DNA of 64,000 bases from Candidatus Borrarchaeum weybense (lineage in GTDB: Archaea > Asgardarchaeota > Sifarchaeia > Borrarchaeales > Borrarchaeaceae). Location: assembly GCA_019057385.1 (NCBI GenBank), contig JAHQJS010000004.1, positions 676,962-740,961 of the forward strand. The letters are read 5' to 3'. Position 1 is the stretch's first letter; each line of letters starts with the position of its first letter. The notes beneath the pieces were generated by a model that worked only from the letters and a program-made list of their open reading frames with translations, searched no databases and had not been told where the DNA came from. Below are positions 17,418-28,323 of this stretch, piece by piece. The position numbers and the translations under genes are program-made.

Positions 17418-18530
17418 TCATTTTCTCTTTTTCTTCTTAAATTCCTTAACGATTTCGATATACTCTTTTACGGGAATGACATTTGGCTTCCGACGAAACC
17501 CTGCAGGTATGGTTGCATCACAACGAGAACAGAGGTTTGAACTTTTCTGCCAATCCTTGAATTCATCAGCATGTGCTGGATATCGACAATGAGGACAAAG
17601 AACAACGCCACGATCCTTATCTTCGGATTTAAAATCTTGAAAGCAAAATATGCATTTGAAATCTTCCAATGTCAGTATCCCTGCTTTCGGTTTGAGTTTT
17701 TCGAATTTTTCACTCATTTTAGGTTTTGTTTTCCGTTTAGTTTTCTTCCTAGTTGGAGTTGTAACTGCTGTTGTTGTTTTCTTGGTAGTTGATCTTTTCT
17801 TCTTGGTGGTTGGTGAGGTACTACGAGTTCTTGTCGTTGTTGAGGTGGTAGTTGTGATGGTAGTTGATCTTCCACCCCTAGGAGTTGTTGACGAACTGCC
17901 TGTCGTGCTACCGGTACTACTACTTTCAGGTATGTCTCTGCGAATAACTGTTGAAATGTCAGGGATTGCAGATTTTCCACCGAATATCCCAAATACGATC
18001 AATAAAAGCAATGAGATAATACCCAGTAGCCAAAACATTAAACCAGAGAAGAATTCCAACGCGAAATAAAATCCAAGGATTGTAATTAAAAAACTTAGAA
18101 GAATGCCAAATTTGCGGGCACTAAATGATTTCTGTCCAATATAAACCACTGCATATCTTTGGAGACAAGAATAAAGTATGAATAAGCCATACATAAGATA
18201 CGGAACTGCAAAAATGAATGTCCACGGACTCAATTGTACTGTTGAAGTCTCCAGAAGATTCCCTCTGAGTAAACCTGTAGAACGTCCCCACAAACTGTAA
18301 AGTATTCCTATAAACAGAGGACCAAAAACAAAGAACGAAGTATTATGCGGTGAGCGAAATTCACGAGCATATTTTACCCTAATTACGAATGCTAAGGTAA
18401 AACATATCCAACATCCAACAGCTAGCCAAGAAACGAACACATCTGTTGAGTTTTCAATTCCCATGCCATGTACAACTGCAGTAATTAGGCTCGCCAGTAA
18501 TATGATGGCATACCATCGCTTTTGTACCAA
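17418..18530 (-). CDS. Polytopic membrane protein with Ser/Thr/Lys-rich linker and C-terminal RING-like zinc finger (putative E3 ligase)
   Basis: About six TM helices; CIFC-x15-CPHC-x4-H..EF..W-x6-CSRC; last gene of Ubl-E1-E2-JAB run. Confidence 0.8.
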   Translation of the reverse strand: MVQKRWYAIILLASLITAVVHGMGIENSTDVFVSWLAVGCWICFTLAFVIRVKYAREFRSPHNTSFFVFGPLFIGILYSLWGRSTGLLRGNLLETSTVQLSPWTFIFAVPYLMYGLFILYSCLQRYAVVYIGQKSFSARKFGILLSFLITILGFYFALEFFSGLMFWLLGIISLLLLIVFGIFGGKSAIPDISTVIRRDIPESSSTGSTTGSSSTTPRGGRSTTITTTTSTTTRTRSTSPTTKKKRSTTKKTTTAVTTPTRKKTKRKTKPKMSEKFEKLKPKAGILTLEDFKCIFCFQDFKSEDKDRGVVLCPHCRYPAHADEFKDWQKSSNLCSRCDATIPAGFRRKPNVIPVKEYIEIVKEFKKKKRK

Positions 18531-18570: not shown

Positions 18571-19347
18571 TTAATCATCATCATATTCAAGATAGAGTGC
18601 TTTTCCCTCTGATATCGGGTTTATAAACTCCAAAAGTTCCGGTAGTAAACGCATATCCAACTGGCCTTTAACATCAAAAGGCACCTCAAACCACGAACGT
18701 GATTTTAAATCCGCCTTGAAGATCTTGAAGCCTAATGATTTGCCGTCAATTAAGTAAGGGTCAATTACGAGAGCAAGCGATTTAGGCCATAGTTTCTGGT
18801 ATCTGATCTGGGTATCGAAATCATCCGTGCTCATAAAAAGTCCATAAGATGGGTGAGAATGATACCAACCGCAAATGAATAAGTTGTTCTTTTTGATATC
18901 GTTGAAAGCCCTCACGTAATTTTTATAATCCTTGATTTCAGCAGAAACGGCTGATCCATGTCCCATCGGATAAGCGTCTTCTATTTGAACTATAAGACCG
19001 TTATCATCTAATTTACCTGCTAGAAGTCCAATAACTTCTATCCATTGATTCTTTGGAATTCTGGAATTGGCATATTTGAATGAATGGCTTGCAATTTTGA
19101 GAATCGTCGTGACCGAAATGGTTATTGTTTCCTTATCTCTTACAGGTTCAGTAGTGACAAGTTCTTGAGTTGATATTTCTTCAGTCTCTAATTCATCATC
19201 AGGTCGGACAGTAATCTCTTCTCGGAGTTCCTCGGACATCAATAGTTCACTGCGGATTTCTTCAAGAAGTTGTTTTTTTAATTCTTCTTTGATTTTCTTT
19301 TTCAAGTCTTCTAAATCCAAAGCGTCTTTTGGTCCGTCACTATTCAT
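18571..19347 (-). CDS. JAB/MPN+ (JAMM) metalloprotease, Rpn11/CSN5-like deconjugase
   Basis: EVIGLLAG, GWYHSHPSYGLFMSTDD (HxHx7Sx2D), ALVIDP. Confidence 0.92.
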   Translation of the reverse strand: MNSDGPKDALDLEDLKKKIKEELKKQLLEEIRSELLMSEELREEITVRPDDELETEEISTQELVTTEPVRDKETITISVTTILKIASHSFKYANSRIPKNQWIEVIGLLAGKLDDNGLIVQIEDAYPMGHGSAVSAEIKDYKNYVRAFNDIKKNNLFICGWYHSHPSYGLFMSTDDFDTQIRYQKLWPKSLALVIDPYLIDGKSLGFKIFKADLKSRSWFEVPFDVKGQLDMRLLPELLEFINPISEGKALYLEYDDD

Positions 19348-19358
19348 TTAAATCGCCT

Positions 19359-19895
19359 CTACCATTTTTTGTTGGCAAATTTTTTGGTCAAATGTTTTAC
19401 TTTTTTATTAAAGTTCTTTGGGTCATTTATAAGCTCAAGTGCAGCCTTCTTGTTAAAAACGTCTGTTGGATTAACATAATACCCCTTTGTATTCAACATT
19501 GCACGAATTGCTTGTATAACAGTTACAATGGTTTTTGATGGACTCCACCCGCCTTTTTTCCCAACATAATTCGGATCTATAAGACCAAGACAGATATTTC
19601 GCTGTCCTGGATATTCGTGAGGTTTAGGCCAAAAATTCGGATGCCAAATACCAGTATGCATGCGCATAAATGGAGGGTGACGTGGATAATCTGGAGGGAA
19701 TTTAATTTCAAGTTTGAATAACCCACCTTGATATGGGGTTCCCTTGGGACCAATTAGCGTGATAGCAAGGTGATCTATGCTTTTTTGACCTGGAAACGGT
19801 TTTAATTGCGCTATTACACCTTCTTTCAGCATTTTTTTAAGTGCTGCATTATCTTGCGAAATTCGACTACTTCTAACACTCATTTTTTTCACCAT
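19359..19895 (-). CDS. Ubiquitin-conjugating enzyme E2
   Basis: GPKGTPYQGGLF.LEI.FP.DYP..PP, HPN, catalytic ICL, WSP. Confidence 0.93.
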   Translation of the reverse strand: MVKKMSVRSSRISQDNAALKKMLKEGVIAQLKPFPGQKSIDHLAITLIGPKGTPYQGGLFKLEIKFPPDYPRHPPFMRMHTGIWHPNFWPKPHEYPGQRNICLGLIDPNYVGKKGGWSPSKTIVTVIQAIRAMLNTKGYYVNPTDVFNKKAALELINDPKNFNKKVKHLTKKFANKKW

Positions 19896-21314: not shown

Positions 21315-21653
21315 TCAACCTGCTGTGCTTGCTGGAATTAAGAGGACGGTATCTCCGTCGTTGATCTTATACTCAACTAAAGCACTATCCTCATCCATCG
21401 TAACGCCGTCATGACTTAAATGAAAGTCTGTTGGGGTCAATCCAAACATGTTAGAAACCGTTTCTTTAACGTCTCCCACTCGATACCCGGTATCTACAAG
21501 CAACTTCTGCTTCTTCTCACCGGGACCAATTGTTGACATGAAGTAGACGTTGACTTTCTCCCCTTCAACAATGGGGCTTGATGGCGTTTTTGAACTGATA
21601 TCTTCGGGCTTTTTCTCTTCTGGTTCAAGCTCTTCATCAAATTCTTCAGACAT
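21315..21653 (-). CDS. Ubiquitin-like protein with acidic N-terminal extension, ending ...STAG
   Basis: Beta-grasp pattern (V.DVKE.V...FGL....HL..DG..MDE...L.EY.INDGDTVLL); heads E1-E2-JAB-RING run; AAGGTG SD. Confidence 0.88.
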   Translation of the reverse strand: MSEEFDEELEPEEKKPEDISSKTPSSPIVEGEKVNVYFMSTIGPGEKKQKLLVDTGYRVGDVKETVSNMFGLTPTDFHLSHDGVTMDEDSALVEYKINDGDTVLLIPASTAG

Positions 21654-21880: not shown

Positions 21881-23068
21881 GTGACCCCATTGACTGATGA
21901 TACTCCTCCCAAAACCCAAATCAGCGAGAAAGTACCAGATAAAAAGGTACTTGAGGAACTTAAGAAAGAAAGGGAAAAACTGGAAGAAGAGCGTAAAAAG
22001 TTAGAAAGGGAACGAAATGAATTGGAAAAAAGTATCAAGAAGTTTGAAAGTTACCACGTAACTATCGAAGATCTTGAAAAAAAGAGAAAAGATCGTGAGA
22101 ATGAACTTAAAGATCTTTTAAAAGAAAGGGATCGCTTAAGAAGTGAGTTGGACACGCTTAAGAATGGGGTTTTATTAGAGAAAAAGCGGATTTCCGATGA
22201 AAAAAGATACATTAATATTGAGAAGGAGAAGATCCACAAACAAAATGAAGACCTTGCCAAAGAACTTAGAAAGCAAAATGAAGAACTTGCTAAGGAAATC
22301 AACGCGAAGAATACCGAATTACACAACATTGAAGCAAGAAGTCGGAAAGAGGAGGATCGTATACGCGAGTTAAGAAAAGAAATCTCACGGTTGGAAAATA
22401 GCAGTAATTCTTTACAAAACAAAATTAACAACTTAGAAAACGAAAAAAATCGGCTTGAAACCGATAAGAAACGATTAGAACAAGATAGGAAGAATTTAAG
22501 AGACGAAGTTGATAAAATTAAAAAAGATTCTGAACTTGAGAAGAAGCGGATTTCTGACGAGAAAAAACAAATTGATAAAGATAAAGAGAAACTTCAGAAG
22601 AAAGACAAAGAGCTAGATCGGAATGAAAAAGCATTATGGCGCAAGAAAAAACAAATTGATGACGACATACAAGATCTAGAACGACATCGAAGAAAAGAGG
22701 ATGATCGACTTCGTGAATTGAATAAAACGACATCAAATTTAGAAAACAATAGGCAATCTTTGCAACGAGAAATTAGAGATTTAAAAGATGAAATAAAAAA
22801 ATTGAATAATGAGAAAAAGCGATTAGAACAAGACAGAAAGCAAGCATTAGAAGACTTAAAACGACAAGAAGCGGAAGTTCAAAAGGAAAAACGCGAAATA
22901 GAACATGAAAAGAGAAAGATTAGAGAAGAAAAAAATAGCATCAAAAATGAACGGGAAAAATTGAAACGAGAAAAAGAAAGTCTGGAAAGAGAACGAAAGA
23001 GACTAGAAGAAGAAATTAGAAAACTGAAGAGTATACCAAAAGAAAAAATAAGGACTAAAACTCCTTGA
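21881..23068 (+). CDS. Long coiled-coil protein with internal tandem duplication of about 120 aa
   Basis: E/K/R/L heptads throughout; LEKKRISDEK, RKE.DR.REL and KKRLEQDRK each occur twice. Confidence 0.8.
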   Translation: MTPLTDDTPPKTQISEKVPDKKVLEELKKEREKLEEERKKLERERNELEKSIKKFESYHVTIEDLEKKRKDRENELKDLLKERDRLRSELDTLKNGVLLEKKRISDEKRYINIEKEKIHKQNEDLAKELRKQNEELAKEINAKNTELHNIEARSRKEEDRIRELRKEISRLENSSNSLQNKINNLENEKNRLETDKKRLEQDRKNLRDEVDKIKKDSELEKKRISDEKKQIDKDKEKLQKKDKELDRNEKALWRKKKQIDDDIQDLERHRRKEDDRLRELNKTTSNLENNRQSLQREIRDLKDEIKKLNNEKKRLEQDRKQALEDLKRQEAEVQKEKREIEHEKRKIREEKNSIKNEREKLKREKESLERERKRLEEEIRKLKSIPKEKIRTKTP

Positions 23069-23109: not shown

Positions 23110-24852
23110 TTAACCCGCTCTACTTGACGGGATTAACAGGATTGTATCTCCATCCTTTATATTGAACTCTTCAAAAATACTGTTTTCATCCAATGTAATT
23201 CCGTTATAAGATAAATGAACTCCTATAGGGTTCAGTCCAAATGAATTCGACACAGTCTCCTTGATATCATTCACTTTGTGATCGAGATTAATGAGTAATT
23301 TTTGTTTCTTTTCGCCAGGTCCAATTGTGGACATGAAGTAGATGTTAATTTGTTTGTCTGTGACATCGTTTTCTATGAGTTTATCGATCTTTTCGCCAGC
23401 GATAGGTTCCGTAATTTCAGAAGTTATCATTGCAGCTGTTTCATCCGTAGGAACTTCTTCTATTGCTGACGGCAGGATGATTTCTTCGACCATTTCTGAG
23501 TCTTCAACGACTTTTTCAAGTTTAGCCTCTTCTTCTGCATGTAATTCCTTTCTTTTAGCCTGCTGTTCCTCTACTTTCTGCCTAAAGTAATTAGTGACTG
23601 TTTCAGTCATAGCATCTTGTATATCATCTTCGTCTATTGTTTTATGGTCGGTTACCAGCCATCGTGCATTAAATTGAATCACATTATCTTCGAATTCGTC
23701 AGGACATATCAGTAAAAATTCACCAGCAGAGAGTTTAGGTAATTGAGCTACTATGTCATTGGCTTTCTCTGGATTCAAACTTTTTAATAGGTGATGCACT
23801 TTTGAGATGTCCTGTTTTGTCATCATACGTCCTAATACCCAGGTGTTTGCTTGTGCCATCGCTTTGTAGTCAATGTCTGCAGGATTTTGAGTTGCAATCA
23901 GATTGCTTACGCCATATTTCCGTGCTTGTTTCATAAGCAGTTGTAAAGAATTCTTAGGGGGAGGATTATAAGGATGTGGTGGCAAATAAGGTGCAATTTC
24001 ATCAACATAGAAAATGAGTTGAGGATCATTCTTTGGATGGCGAAGCATCCATTCATATAATTGTCGGCTTAATGTTGCGATGAAGAAGTGTTTATCGGCT
24101 TCCTTATTCAGCGTGTTAAGATAGATAATGTTTACAGGGGTCTTTCCAGCCTCTACAGGCGTCAAGAAGGTATCGATATCCAGAGCTATACCCATTTCGA
24201 AAATCAGTTTAGTTGCTCCGGTCGCCAAAAATCGAATCTTTTTTGCTAGCTTTCGAATTTCTCTCGTATCGATCACACCAGAAGATCTTTCTTTGAGCTG
24301 TTCAGGAGGATTTTCCACGCATTCAGCTAAAGTCTTTAAATGGTCTAAAGGTGACCCTTGTTCCCTATAATAATCCAAAAGTTGAAAGAGATATGTCTGT
24401 GCTGCTTTCCCGGTATCATTTTCAGGATCGTAGCCTAGGAAACGAATTAAAGTTACTGCTATATTGTCTACTGCCTTTATGATATCTTCAACATCCATTT
24501 CCTCTTCTGAAAATTTTAACGGGTTTATACATAAAGGAATACCTTTTGATGATGCAGGAGTCCAGATACGAACTTCTGCATTTTCCCAATACTCTTCAGC
24601 AAATTCCAGGGGAGTTCCCATCTCTTGAAGTTTCTCTGGATCACCAAGTAGCCCCAGACTTGCAATATCTCCTTGTGGGTCGATTACTAGGGTAGGAATT
24701 TCCTGTCGTGTAGCTTCTTCCACTAATACCTTACAAAAAACAGTCTTTCCAGACCCGGAGGCGCCTAGGGTACAAATATGACGTTTTAAGGTCTTTTTCT
24801 TAAGTTCGACAAATTCCTCTGTTGCTTTATTTTTACCTAAAACTATACTCAC
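23110..24852 (-). CDS. HerA/FtsK-superfamily (DUF87/DUF853-like) ATPase fused to C-terminal ubiquitin-like domain
   Basis: Walker A GASGSGKT, VIDPQGD, Walker B FYVDE, ARKYGV...ATQNP; last 79 aa are 50/79 identical to the Ubl at 21315-21653, ending SRAG. Confidence 0.9.
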   Translation of the reverse strand: MSIVLGKNKATEEFVELKKKTLKRHICTLGASGSGKTVFCKVLVEEATRQEIPTLVIDPQGDIASLGLLGDPEKLQEMGTPLEFAEEYWENAEVRIWTPASSKGIPLCINPLKFSEEEMDVEDIIKAVDNIAVTLIRFLGYDPENDTGKAAQTYLFQLLDYYREQGSPLDHLKTLAECVENPPEQLKERSSGVIDTREIRKLAKKIRFLATGATKLIFEMGIALDIDTFLTPVEAGKTPVNIIYLNTLNKEADKHFFIATLSRQLYEWMLRHPKNDPQLIFYVDEIAPYLPPHPYNPPPKNSLQLLMKQARKYGVSNLIATQNPADIDYKAMAQANTWVLGRMMTKQDISKVHHLLKSLNPEKANDIVAQLPKLSAGEFLLICPDEFEDNVIQFNARWLVTDHKTIDEDDIQDAMTETVTNYFRQKVEEQQAKRKELHAEEEAKLEKVVEDSEMVEEIILPSAIEEVPTDETAAMITSEITEPIAGEKIDKLIENDVTDKQINIYFMSTIGPGEKKQKLLINLDHKVNDIKETVSNSFGLNPIGVHLSYNGITLDENSIFEEFNIKDGDTILLIPSSRAG

Positions 24853-27120: not shown

Positions 27121-28323
27121 CTAACATAAACTGAATAATAACCCTTTTCCATATGTTATCAACTCCACGTTGTTAATTGCGACACTGGGATTTTTTCCTT
27201 TAGGATTGTCCAACACAACTCGTTTTCCGTAACAATGAACTCCTTTTACTCTATATGTGTTATGATTATACTTGACAAGGTCATAGGGTTGCAACTGGTA
27301 TCTCTGTCTCCTAATAGACGGTTTGAATCCCTTTCTATTCTTCTGTAGCGAACGGTTATTGCGCCTGATTTGTATCACCTCATACGGGCGGCAGCGTTCT
27401 TGATTGGTGCCGCCGGCAATGACGAATGCATCATTAATATGAGATTTTTCTAAACCTAACTTATTGCGGTGGTATTTAGTAACGTATCCGTAAGTATATT
27501 CTGCATCTAATTGCTCTACTAGTTTCCAACGAATGTTATTCAGACAGGCGGTTGCTTTAAGTGGCGTCTTTGCCTGCTGCTGGATGTGAGGGTAGCCGAA
27601 CTCCTCGGCGGTCTTATCTCCTTTTTTAAGGTTACATTTCCTACAGGCGATCGTCAAATTCGACACTCGATCTGTCCCACCTCGGCTTTTCGGAACGATA
27701 TGCTCGACTTCTAGGGGCACGCCCGTTTTACCACAATAGGCACATTTGCGTCCCCACTTATCTAACAGGTATTCTTTGACTTCGTAGCCCTGAAGTTCGC
27801 CCTGCTGGTACTCTACGCCTGTAATTTCCGGATGTTGCATTTTGTGAGCGTCGAAATTGCCCACCTCTATTTTTTTGAAGGGTATCGGTAGCATCGTTTC
27901 AAGTGTTTCACCTAATCGAATATGTGAGTCATGCCGATGTTGAATACTGGGGGGTAACCAGCCTTCAGGTCGTGTTCGGTTATCAAATCGTGGTGGTCGA
28001 TACCCTAATCTGCCTCTACGAGTGCTACGATACCTACGTTTTTCCGCTAGCTTGTTAGATACATCCTTGCGCAAGCGTAACGTGCAACTGATGACTTCTA
28101 ATTTATCGGTCGTGGCACTAAATCCGAGTTTCATATATCCCGGGTCTACTCCCAGTTTAATCGATTGTGTCGCCTCTCCGGTGGCATAATTCAACTGAAT
28201 GGTAAACGGGCATCGCTGAACAACTGTTGCCTTGCCTTCTTTTAACAACTTTTTTCCTGTATGTTGTGTGGTCGGCATGAGGGGGTGCCCCCTCATGTTC
28301 AACACATAGATAGGTACTCTCAA
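27121..28323 (-). CDS. iscB: RNA-guided endonuclease IscB
   Basis: PLMP motif, RuvC-I LGVDPG, Arg-rich bridge helix, RuvC-II IEVGNFD, HNH CAYC..EHIVPKSRGGTD..SNL...C..CN, RuvC-III SHINDA; AGGAGG SD. Confidence 0.95.
   Translation of the reverse strand: MRVPIYVLNMRGHPLMPTTQHTGKKLLKEGKATVVQRCPFTIQLNYATGEATQSIKLGVDPGYMKLGFSATTDKLEVISCTLRLRKDVSNKLAEKRRYRSTRRGRLGYRPPRFDNRTRPEGWLPPSIQHRHDSHIRLGETLETMLPIPFKKIEVGNFDAHKMQHPEITGVEYQQGELQGYEVKEYLLDKWGRKCAYCGKTGVPLEVEHIVPKSRGGTDRVSNLTIACRKCNLKKGDKTAEEFGYPHIQQQAKTPLKATACLNNIRWKLVEQLDAEYTYGYVTKYHRNKLGLEKSHINDAFVIAGGTNQERCRPYEVIQIRRNNRSLQKNRKGFKPSIRRQRYQLQPYDLVKYNHNTYRVKGVHCYGKRVVLDNPKGKNPSVAINNVELITYGKGLLFSLC

Follow-up and report, generated by a model that had tools for sequence, protein, structure and literature searches.

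An archaeal ubiquitin operon of the eukaryote-like type, with genes for ubiquitin, E1, E2, a small RING protein and Rpn11, has been reconstituted from Caldiarchaeum (PMC5654768), and processing of a ubiquitin precursor by an archaeal Rpn11 homologue has been demonstrated (PMC6043591). In bacteria, the type II cyclic-oligonucleotide-based antiphage signaling systems (CBASS) employ Cap2, an E1-E2 fusion, to conjugate a cGAS-like cyclase via its C-terminus, and Cap3, a JAB protease, to reverse the reaction (PMC10097602; 10.1101/2022.03.31.486616; PMC11153139), and the ubiquitin-like (Ubl) proteins of the bacterial Bil and Bub systems can possess an N-terminal coiled coil, DUF1508 or N/G-rich low-complexity parts (10.1101/2024.11.21.623966). 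A review notes fusions of ubiquitin to the C-terminus in two algae (PMC11354881), and in a survey of Asgard archaea many domain architectures of eukaryotic signature proteins were found to be lineage-specific. Here we analyze a stretch of 64,000 nucleotides from Candidatus Borrarchaeum weybense (Asgardarchaeota, Sifarchaeia; contig JAHQJS010000004.1, positions 676,962 to 740,961), hereafter the window, which encodes a HerA-type ATPase that ends in a copy of a Ubl modifier, located close to genes for the free modifier, an E1, an E2, a JAMM protease and a membrane protein with a RING/U-box-like domain. An earlier note on the window, made from the DNA letters, had described this fusion and proposed that the adjacent cascade may covalently attach the entire motor ATPase to its targets. 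The Ubl systems of Asgard archaea attract interest as forerunners of that in eukaryotes, and almost nothing is known of their targets and uses; this locus is a concrete, testable candidate in which the modifier is carried in cis, with all the hallmarks of a conjugatable tail at the sequence level, beside a complete E1/E2/JAMM/RING-like gene set.

A HerA-type ATPase with a C-terminal ubiquitin-like domain

The fusion is encoded in a single open reading frame (ORF) with a stop-free translation (Table 1). The GTG start codon is preceded, 7 nt upstream, by a Shine-Dalgarno-like GGAGG sequence, and the orthologous gene at locus L004 has ATG at the equivalent position. Misassembly at the junction, named in the earlier note as a potential source of error, is ruled out because the same fusion is present in approximately 20 orthologues from separate assemblies and because Logan contigs from additional runs of the same study span the junction of Ubl, linker and ATPase without a single difference.

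The C-terminal part of the fusion matches the free Ubl with 51 of 84 residues identical (BLASTP, E 1e-39), far above chance and in good agreement with the 50/79 counted originally; the fused Ubl domains are 58-65% identical to the free Ubl. The score of the fused domain (aa 516-573) with the Pfam ubiquitin profile PF00240 is 24.5 bits and that of the free Ubl is 24.4 bits, with a cut-off of 25.4 bits, and a phmmer search with the Ubl as the query retrieves ubiquitin chains. In the AlphaFold2 model, aa 501-577 adopt the strand-strand-helix-strand-strand beta-grasp topology with a predicted local distance difference test score (pLDDT) of 84-89. Both the fused and the free Ubl end in Ala-Gly-stop, as already read in the earlier note, with a conserved free Gly and with Ala-Gly in place of the Gly-Gly of ubiquitin. 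The columns that are invariant across free and fused copies are kept in the fused Ubls; among them are the loop STIGPGEK, the residues HLS and the tail LLIP-x-S-x-AG. The genome of the window encodes only two copies of this domain, both beside the Ubl-E1-E2-JAMM-RING operon.

The ATPase domain belongs to the DUF853/YjgR branch of the HerA/FtsK superfamily. A Pfam search detects HerA_C (PF05872, E 2.8e-13, 49.8 bits with a cut-off of 22) and DUF87 (PF01935, E 1.8e-12, 48.3 bits with a cut-off of 23.2) in aa 10-386, and the motifs described as intact in the earlier note are all present, with Walker A (G30-T37), D284/E285, R311 and A320-T321-Q322 almost unchanged across the 39 relatives aligned. 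The only near full-length relative of solved structure identified by a sequence search of the PDB is Escherichia coli YjgR (11kk, deposited as 'HerA like helicase'; match over aa 21-382). The model has a RecA-like fold that aligns best with HerA rings: each of the top 50 Foldseek matches is a chain of the HerA type (E 6e-15 to 3e-11), and the matches include HerA hexameric translocases, DndH, TdpAB and Sir2-HerA. The HAS barrel of the canonical HerA of the HerA-NurA type is absent because Walker A begins at residue 30, which leaves only about 29 residues in front of it, and no gene for a NurA-like or other nuclease is adjacent to the fusion gene among the window ORFs analyzed with Pfam. From family membership alone, we infer that the ATPase would be a hexamer-type ring motor. 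A literature search on YjgR and DUF853 yielded nothing on their function, and the gene contexts of the DUF853 homologues in Bathyarchaeia contain no conserved neighbours and offer no clue to the substrate of the ATPase.

Between the two domains lies a linker of variable length among the orthologues (aa 426-500 in the window protein) that is indeed acidic, with 23 D/E and 9 K/R residues and an isoelectric point (pI) of 4.3. In the model of the whole fusion (mean pLDDT 81), the confidently predicted ATPase core (pLDDT mostly 80-95) terminates in a long helix (aa 417-455), and aa 449-498 have pLDDT below 50, indicating disorder.

Conservation, origin and neighbourhood of the fusion

All 20 orthologues of the fusion (≥72% identity) carry the Ubl, always at the extreme C-terminus, and no orthologue without it was found among the proteins of 319-1015 aa searched. 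The terminal Ala-Gly is kept in 13 of the 13 aligned orthologues and directly followed by the stop codon in 11. At the nucleotide level, Ala-Gly-stop is kept in 8/8 loci, with variation of the Ala codon (GCG, GCA or GCT) and of the stop codon (TAA or TGA).

In a scan of 400 Asgard genomes, the Ubl family was detected in 192; among the best 150 of 484 places, the Ubl is located within a frame of approximately 600 aa only in the genus of the window (genomes G000, G002 and G004), the class being represented by only six genomes in the set. The close relatives are named Ca. Borrarchaeum yapensis, another 'Borrarchaeota' metagenome-assembled genome and Ca. Sifarchaeum marinoarchaea. In the genome of the sister family (G005), the operon is present and the ATPase is represented only by a 40% identical paralogue. 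A 263-aa open frame (G277:C29) turned out, when checked, to be a free Ubl with an over-extended frame.

The next relatives after the orthologues (≤53% identity) are DUF853 proteins of approximately 700 aa, mostly from Bathyarchaeia (45-53% identity), which contain an unrelated C-terminal part and in which the similarity to the fusion stops near aa 425. The genome of the window itself also encodes a 634-aa ATPase paralogue of the DUF853 type (40% identity) that lacks a Ubl. The gene for this paralogue is located about 14 kb beyond the window end (G000:C4:755103-756083; L007:619-2523, minus strand), and its product, in which the C-terminal part is different and comprises about 210 aa, appears to match the sole DUF853 hit of the sister-family genome.

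Phylogenetic analysis of 38 Ubl domains by maximum likelihood places all HerA-fused Ubls in a single clade (support 87/85), which branches from within the free Ubls of Sifarchaeia (83/80); the fusion therefore took place once and involved a duplicate of the lineage's own modifier. Each fused Ubl groups with the other fused Ubls instead of with the free Ubl from the same genome, so that gene conversion between the fused and free Ubls, which we also considered, is rejected. Taken with the domain comparison, this phylogenetic reconstruction shows that the ancestral C-terminal domain of approximately 270 aa was replaced once, in one genus of Sifarchaeia, by the acidic linker and a modifier duplicate. 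The pairwise ratios of nonsynonymous to synonymous substitution rates (dN/dS) are 0.06-0.12 for the ATPase core, 0.31-0.68 for the linker, 0.09-0.27 for the fused Ubl (at dS of 0.3-1.3) and 0.04-0.10 for the free Ubl. Judging by these values, the fused Ubl is clearly subject to purifying selection, weaker than that on the free modifier.

Searching other assemblies for longer proteins that contain the free Ubl (P0122, P0123-P0128, P0130, P0131), we found that the modifier of this Asgard family occurs repeatedly at the very C-terminus of unrelated proteins, often with a short precursor-like tail. These include a triple poly-Ubl in which the units end in STAG and the last one in STAGFF, a family of proteins of approximately 263 aa with an N-terminal Zn-ribbon/coiled-coil and a C-terminal Ubl that ends in STAG, STAGFR or SIAGAIP, and a protein combining CDC48_N-like and VWA domains with a C-terminal Ubl that ends in STAGCK. 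An apparent Ubl-E1 fusion (P0129) was discarded: its junction resembles translated intergenic sequence, so that a frameshift or an artefact of gene calling is probable.

The order fusion, coiled-coil gene on the opposite strand, Ubl, E1, E2, JAMM and RING-like gene is kept in the window and at two other loci, L004 (P0016, 75% identity) and L014 (P0003, Ca. Borrarchaeum yapensis). The fusion gene is a separate transcription unit because the opposite-strand coiled-coil gene intervenes before the free Ubl; hence, where the earlier note spoke of the operon's ubiquitin-like domain, the fused domain is a copy of the neighbouring free Ubl in a gene that lies outside the Ubl-E1-E2-JAMM-RING transcription unit.

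The E1, the E2, the JAMM protease and the RING/U-box-like protein all look catalytically intact. In the E1, Cys194 and the two CxxC pairs are invariant in 20 homologues. The membrane protein, in which no Pfam family scores above threshold, contains a basic Thr/Lys-rich linker (24 K/R and 5 D/E, pI 11.8) and a C-terminal domain that matches Prok-RING_1 and zf-RING_2 only with E ~0.006-0.01, below the cut-off. The invariant residues of this domain are C-x2-C, C-x2-C-x4-H, W and C-x2-C, with Asp or Glu at what appears to be the position of the eighth zinc ligand. The best PDB matches of its model are nearly all U-box or RING domains, albeit weak (E 2e-3 to 9e-2, TM-score ~0.5), and domains 56-70% identical to it are found in hypothetical proteins whose annotation assigns them to Loki-, Hod-, Hermod- and Thorarchaeota.

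The coiled-coil gene and the Ubl operon are divergently transcribed from a 228-bp spacer. The coiled-coil protein has internal repeats and varies in length, from 395 aa in the window to 511 aa (L004:11823-13358, minus strand) and 569 aa (L014:3890-5599, minus strand); its termini are conserved, the C-terminus with a KTKTP-type motif. A similar motif, SKTP, is found in the free Ubl (aa 20-24), and in free Ubls across Asgard genomes (L027-L036), the N-terminus forms an acidic arm in which one, two or three [S/A]KTP motifs stand right before the beta-grasp. The [S/T/A]KTP motifs are candidates for an acceptor lysine or a phosphorylation site; tested as a possible signature of acceptor sites, the motif showed no enrichment, as 51 of 4250 ORFs genome-wide contain it, approximately the expected frequency. 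PADLOC yielded only generic matches to HerA, mad8 and Cap2-type families at the locus, along with coiled-coil noise for the 395-aa protein, and we do not assign the locus to a known defence system.

Table 1. Features of the fusion gene and its neighbours (positions in the window)
Feature	Position	Strand	Description and basis
HerA-like ATPase-Ubl fusion gene	23110..24852	-	580 aa, GTG start, TAA stop
ATPase core, aa 1-425	23578..24852	-	DUF853/YjgR-type HerA-FtsK P-loop domain, without HAS barrel
Walker A GASGSGKT, aa 30-37	24742..24765	-	read in sequence; nearly invariant in alignment
Walker B LIFYVDE, aa 279-285	23998..24018	-	D284, E285 nearly invariant in alignment
Acidic linker, aa 426-500	23353..23577	-	predicted disordered from ~aa 449
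C-terminal Ubl beta-grasp, aa 501-580, ending LLIPSSRAG	23113..23352	-	sequence comparison, Pfam, model
Lys/Glu-rich coiled-coil protein, 395 aa, ends in TKTP motif	21881..23068	+	between fusion gene and Ubl operon
Free Ubl, 112 aa, acidic N-terminal arm with SKTP motif, ends ASTAG	21315..21653	-	BLASTP, Pfam, sequence
E1, ThiF family, 410 aa	19967..21199	-	Pfam ThiF E 1.5e-60; GxGxxG, two CxxC pairs, Cys194
E2, UQ_con, 178 aa, HPN...Cys	19359..19895	-	Pfam 91 bits; motif read
JAMM/MPN+ protease, 258 aa, HSHx7SxxD	18571..19347	-	Pfam JAB E 8e-13; motif read
Polytopic membrane protein, 370 aa, C-terminal RING/U-box-like domain	17418..18530	-	motif, model matches

Possible roles of the fused domain

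The comparative evidence fits a conjugation-competent tail; it comprises the C-terminal position, the retained Ala-Gly-stop, the selection on the domain, its origin from the lineage's own modifier and the occurrence of this Ubl at the C-terminus of other proteins, in some of them with a short propeptide-like tail after the Ala-Gly. Given that the fused Ubl appears to keep both the modifier surface and the free Ala-Gly carboxy-terminus, the resident E1 probably activates it, by adenylation and thioester formation, in the same way as the free Ubl, and would pass the fusion on to the E2; the approximately 50 predicted disordered residues in front of the Ubl suggest that the E1 could reach it. With the membrane RING/U-box-like protein as a putative E3, each ATPase protomer could become isopeptide-bonded to lysines of target proteins, and the JAMM protease may reverse the attachment as well as trim the occasional C-terminal extension. 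The Ubl would then serve as a covalent, reversible tether that places the motor ATPase at its site of action. We consider such conjugation of the whole ATPase plausible, with the balance of the arguments roughly even. A complex prediction for the E1 and the fused Ubl domain, run without controls, gave a score of 0.02 and counts as evidence neither way.

Several observations weigh against conjugation by the neighbouring cascade. The neighbourhood is broken in at least one lineage and probably in a second: in P0004/P0005, the fusion gene is unlinked from the cascade and adjoins leucine-biosynthesis-type genes, and in P0006-P0015, it is apparently unlinked as well, being followed by an 89-aa gene and a transposon-type gene before the short contigs end. 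The adjacency stressed in the earlier note holds for three lineages and fails in at least one, probably two. The G002 genome (76% complete) contains the fusion, and orthologues of the free Ubl, E1 and JAMM were not found in it, which leaves their absence unproven. Furthermore, the fused Ubl evolves at 2-4 times the rate of its free counterpart, and in the sub-lineage of the window, the ASTAG tail has become SSRAG, the altered positions being aligned with R72 and R74 of ubiquitin, R72 being a residue that helps to set the choice of E1. In two of the 13 aligned orthologues, 7-8 residues follow the Ala-Gly, owing to a stop-to-Leu read-through into the 3' flank. Finally, two of the other Ubl fusion genes were checked in context, and neither is located beside E1/E2 genes. 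Overall, the comparative evidence supports in part the conjugation proposed earlier, and the broken linkage and faster evolution of the fused domain detract from it.

The unlinked lineages share an acidic protein of approximately 89-93 aa, of no known family, whose gene invariably follows that of the fusion immediately downstream, in opposite orientation (L001:12221-12502, L002:11872-12141 and L041:3170-3439, all minus strand). Genes of the RRXRR+HNH (IscB-like), reverse-transcriptase and OrfB_IS605/TnpB types are present near the fusion gene in several genomes (window 27121-28323, minus strand; L001:6772-9466; L040:12264-13406; L004:8558-9943) and may explain the rearranged neighbourhood in some lineages.

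The broken linkage and the faster evolution are explained if the Ubl is never activated and serves, like the integral UBL or UBX domains of eukaryotes, as a non-covalent docking domain that brings the ATPase to binders of the free modifier. These could be receptors of the ESCRT, proteasome or Cdc48 type, or the E1, E2 and JAMM proteins themselves. Such a role would also be compatible with the read-through tail that is apparently tolerated in two orthologues and with the position of the other checked fusions away from E1/E2 genes. What docking does not account for is the extreme C-terminal position and the free Ala-Gly, neither of which it requires and both of which are kept through synonymous and stop-codon turnover. 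The integral UBLs of eukaryotes are usually N-terminal or internal and have lost the terminal Gly-Gly, and their divergence from ubiquitin is far greater than that between the fused and free Ubls here, with 58-65% identity. We regard docking as the main rival to conjugation, though on the whole rather unlikely.

A conserved tail would equally be expected if the Ubl acted in cis, folding onto the ATPase ring or occupying the active site of the E1 or JAMM as a pseudo-substrate, so that ATPase activity would be coupled to the state of the Ubl system without any transfer; a variant of this scheme is self-conjugation between protomers. The long flexible linker would permit intramolecular or intra-ring contacts, and binding to the E1 or JAMM would require the tail to be conserved, but nothing in the data is specific to auto-inhibition, and we deem this role improbable. 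The restriction of the fusion to one genus could also signify a near-neutral, lineage-specific event, with the Ubl functionless in the fusion, or else a reservoir of modifier that is freed by a further protease. The dN/dS of 0.09-0.27 at near-saturated dS and the retention of the Ubl in 20/20 orthologues, with none lacking it in the size range searched, argue against neutrality. As for a reservoir, JAMM enzymes cut after the terminal Gly of a Ubl, so that release of a C-terminal Ubl needs another enzyme, and the locus encodes no protease that would cut in front of the Ubl. Either version has, in our view, little chance of being correct.

Returning to covalent conjugation, one specific elaboration, which we rate as a long shot, is that the locus rebuilds the FtsK-like arrangement of membrane anchor, long linker and motor, with a HerA ring ligated through its six Ubl tails. 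The acceptors could be lysines in the basic Thr/Lys-rich linker of the RING-like protein, which is complementary in charge to the acidic linker of the ATPase, or else the coiled-coil protein. If so, Ubl conjugation in Asgard archaea would position a machine instead of marking a substrate.

Relation to described systems

No paper on a HerA/DUF853-Ubl fusion or on a motor ATPase as Ubl cargo was found in our literature searches, consistent with the statement in the earlier note that this architecture was not familiar from archaeal ubiquitin systems. Ubiquitin-fold domains inside larger proteins are familiar from the eukaryotic UBL and UBX proteins, such as Rad23, Dsk2, parkin and the UBX cofactors of p97, which dock on ubiquitin receptors or on the ATPase. 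In these proteins, the domain occupies an N-terminal or internal position and has no free terminal Gly, whereas here it is located at the extreme C-terminus and keeps the modifier tail. Should the E1 not charge the fusion, the domain would represent an early case of integral UBL docking in an organism other than a eukaryote. If the fusion is charged and transferred, archaeal Ubl ligation could tether a whole motor enzyme, the tethering of a whole enzyme being so far known only for the bacterial cGAS in CBASS, and the fusion would provide a handle for finding natural acceptor proteins.

The ATPase shares its fold and motifs with the DUF853/YjgR proteins and HerA translocases (PDB 11kk for YjgR; 4d2i and 9x1m for HerA) and with the Sir2-HerA and DUF4297-HerA defence complexes, but differs from them in the absence of the HAS barrel and of a nuclease or Sir2 partner gene, and in the linker and Ubl that take the place of the ancestral C-terminal domain. 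With regard to the conjugation genes, the locus resembles the archaeal ubiquitin operon of Ca. Caldiarchaeum subterraneum and Asgard archaea in the ThiF-type E1 with a catalytic Cys, UQ_con E2, JAMM and RING-like components (PMC5654768, PMC6043591). In contrast to that operon, the modifier ends in Ala-Gly, the E3-like component spans the membrane several times and contains a basic linker rich in Thr and Lys, and a second copy of the modifier forms the C-terminal domain of a 500-aa ATPase. The Bil/Bub systems (Gong et al.) likewise combine a C-terminal beta-grasp behind other domains with operons that encode E1, E2 and JAB. Their N-terminal parts, however, are small and non-enzymatic, their enzymes are of diverged bacterial types as opposed to UQ_con and RING, and no motor ATPase cargo has been reported for them.

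The closest parallel to the proposed reaction is type II CBASS, in which E1/E2 chemistry attaches a whole enzyme through the glycine at the enzyme's own C-terminus and a JAB protease sets it free again. In CBASS, a bacterial antiviral system without a RING protein, the cyclase has only a ubiquitin-like tail and no beta-grasp domain, and the E1 and E2 are fused; at the fusion locus, no cyclase gene is present, and the E1 is separate from the E2, which is of the eukaryotic UQ_con type. Thus, the fusion locus may work like type II CBASS by analogy, without being a member of that system.

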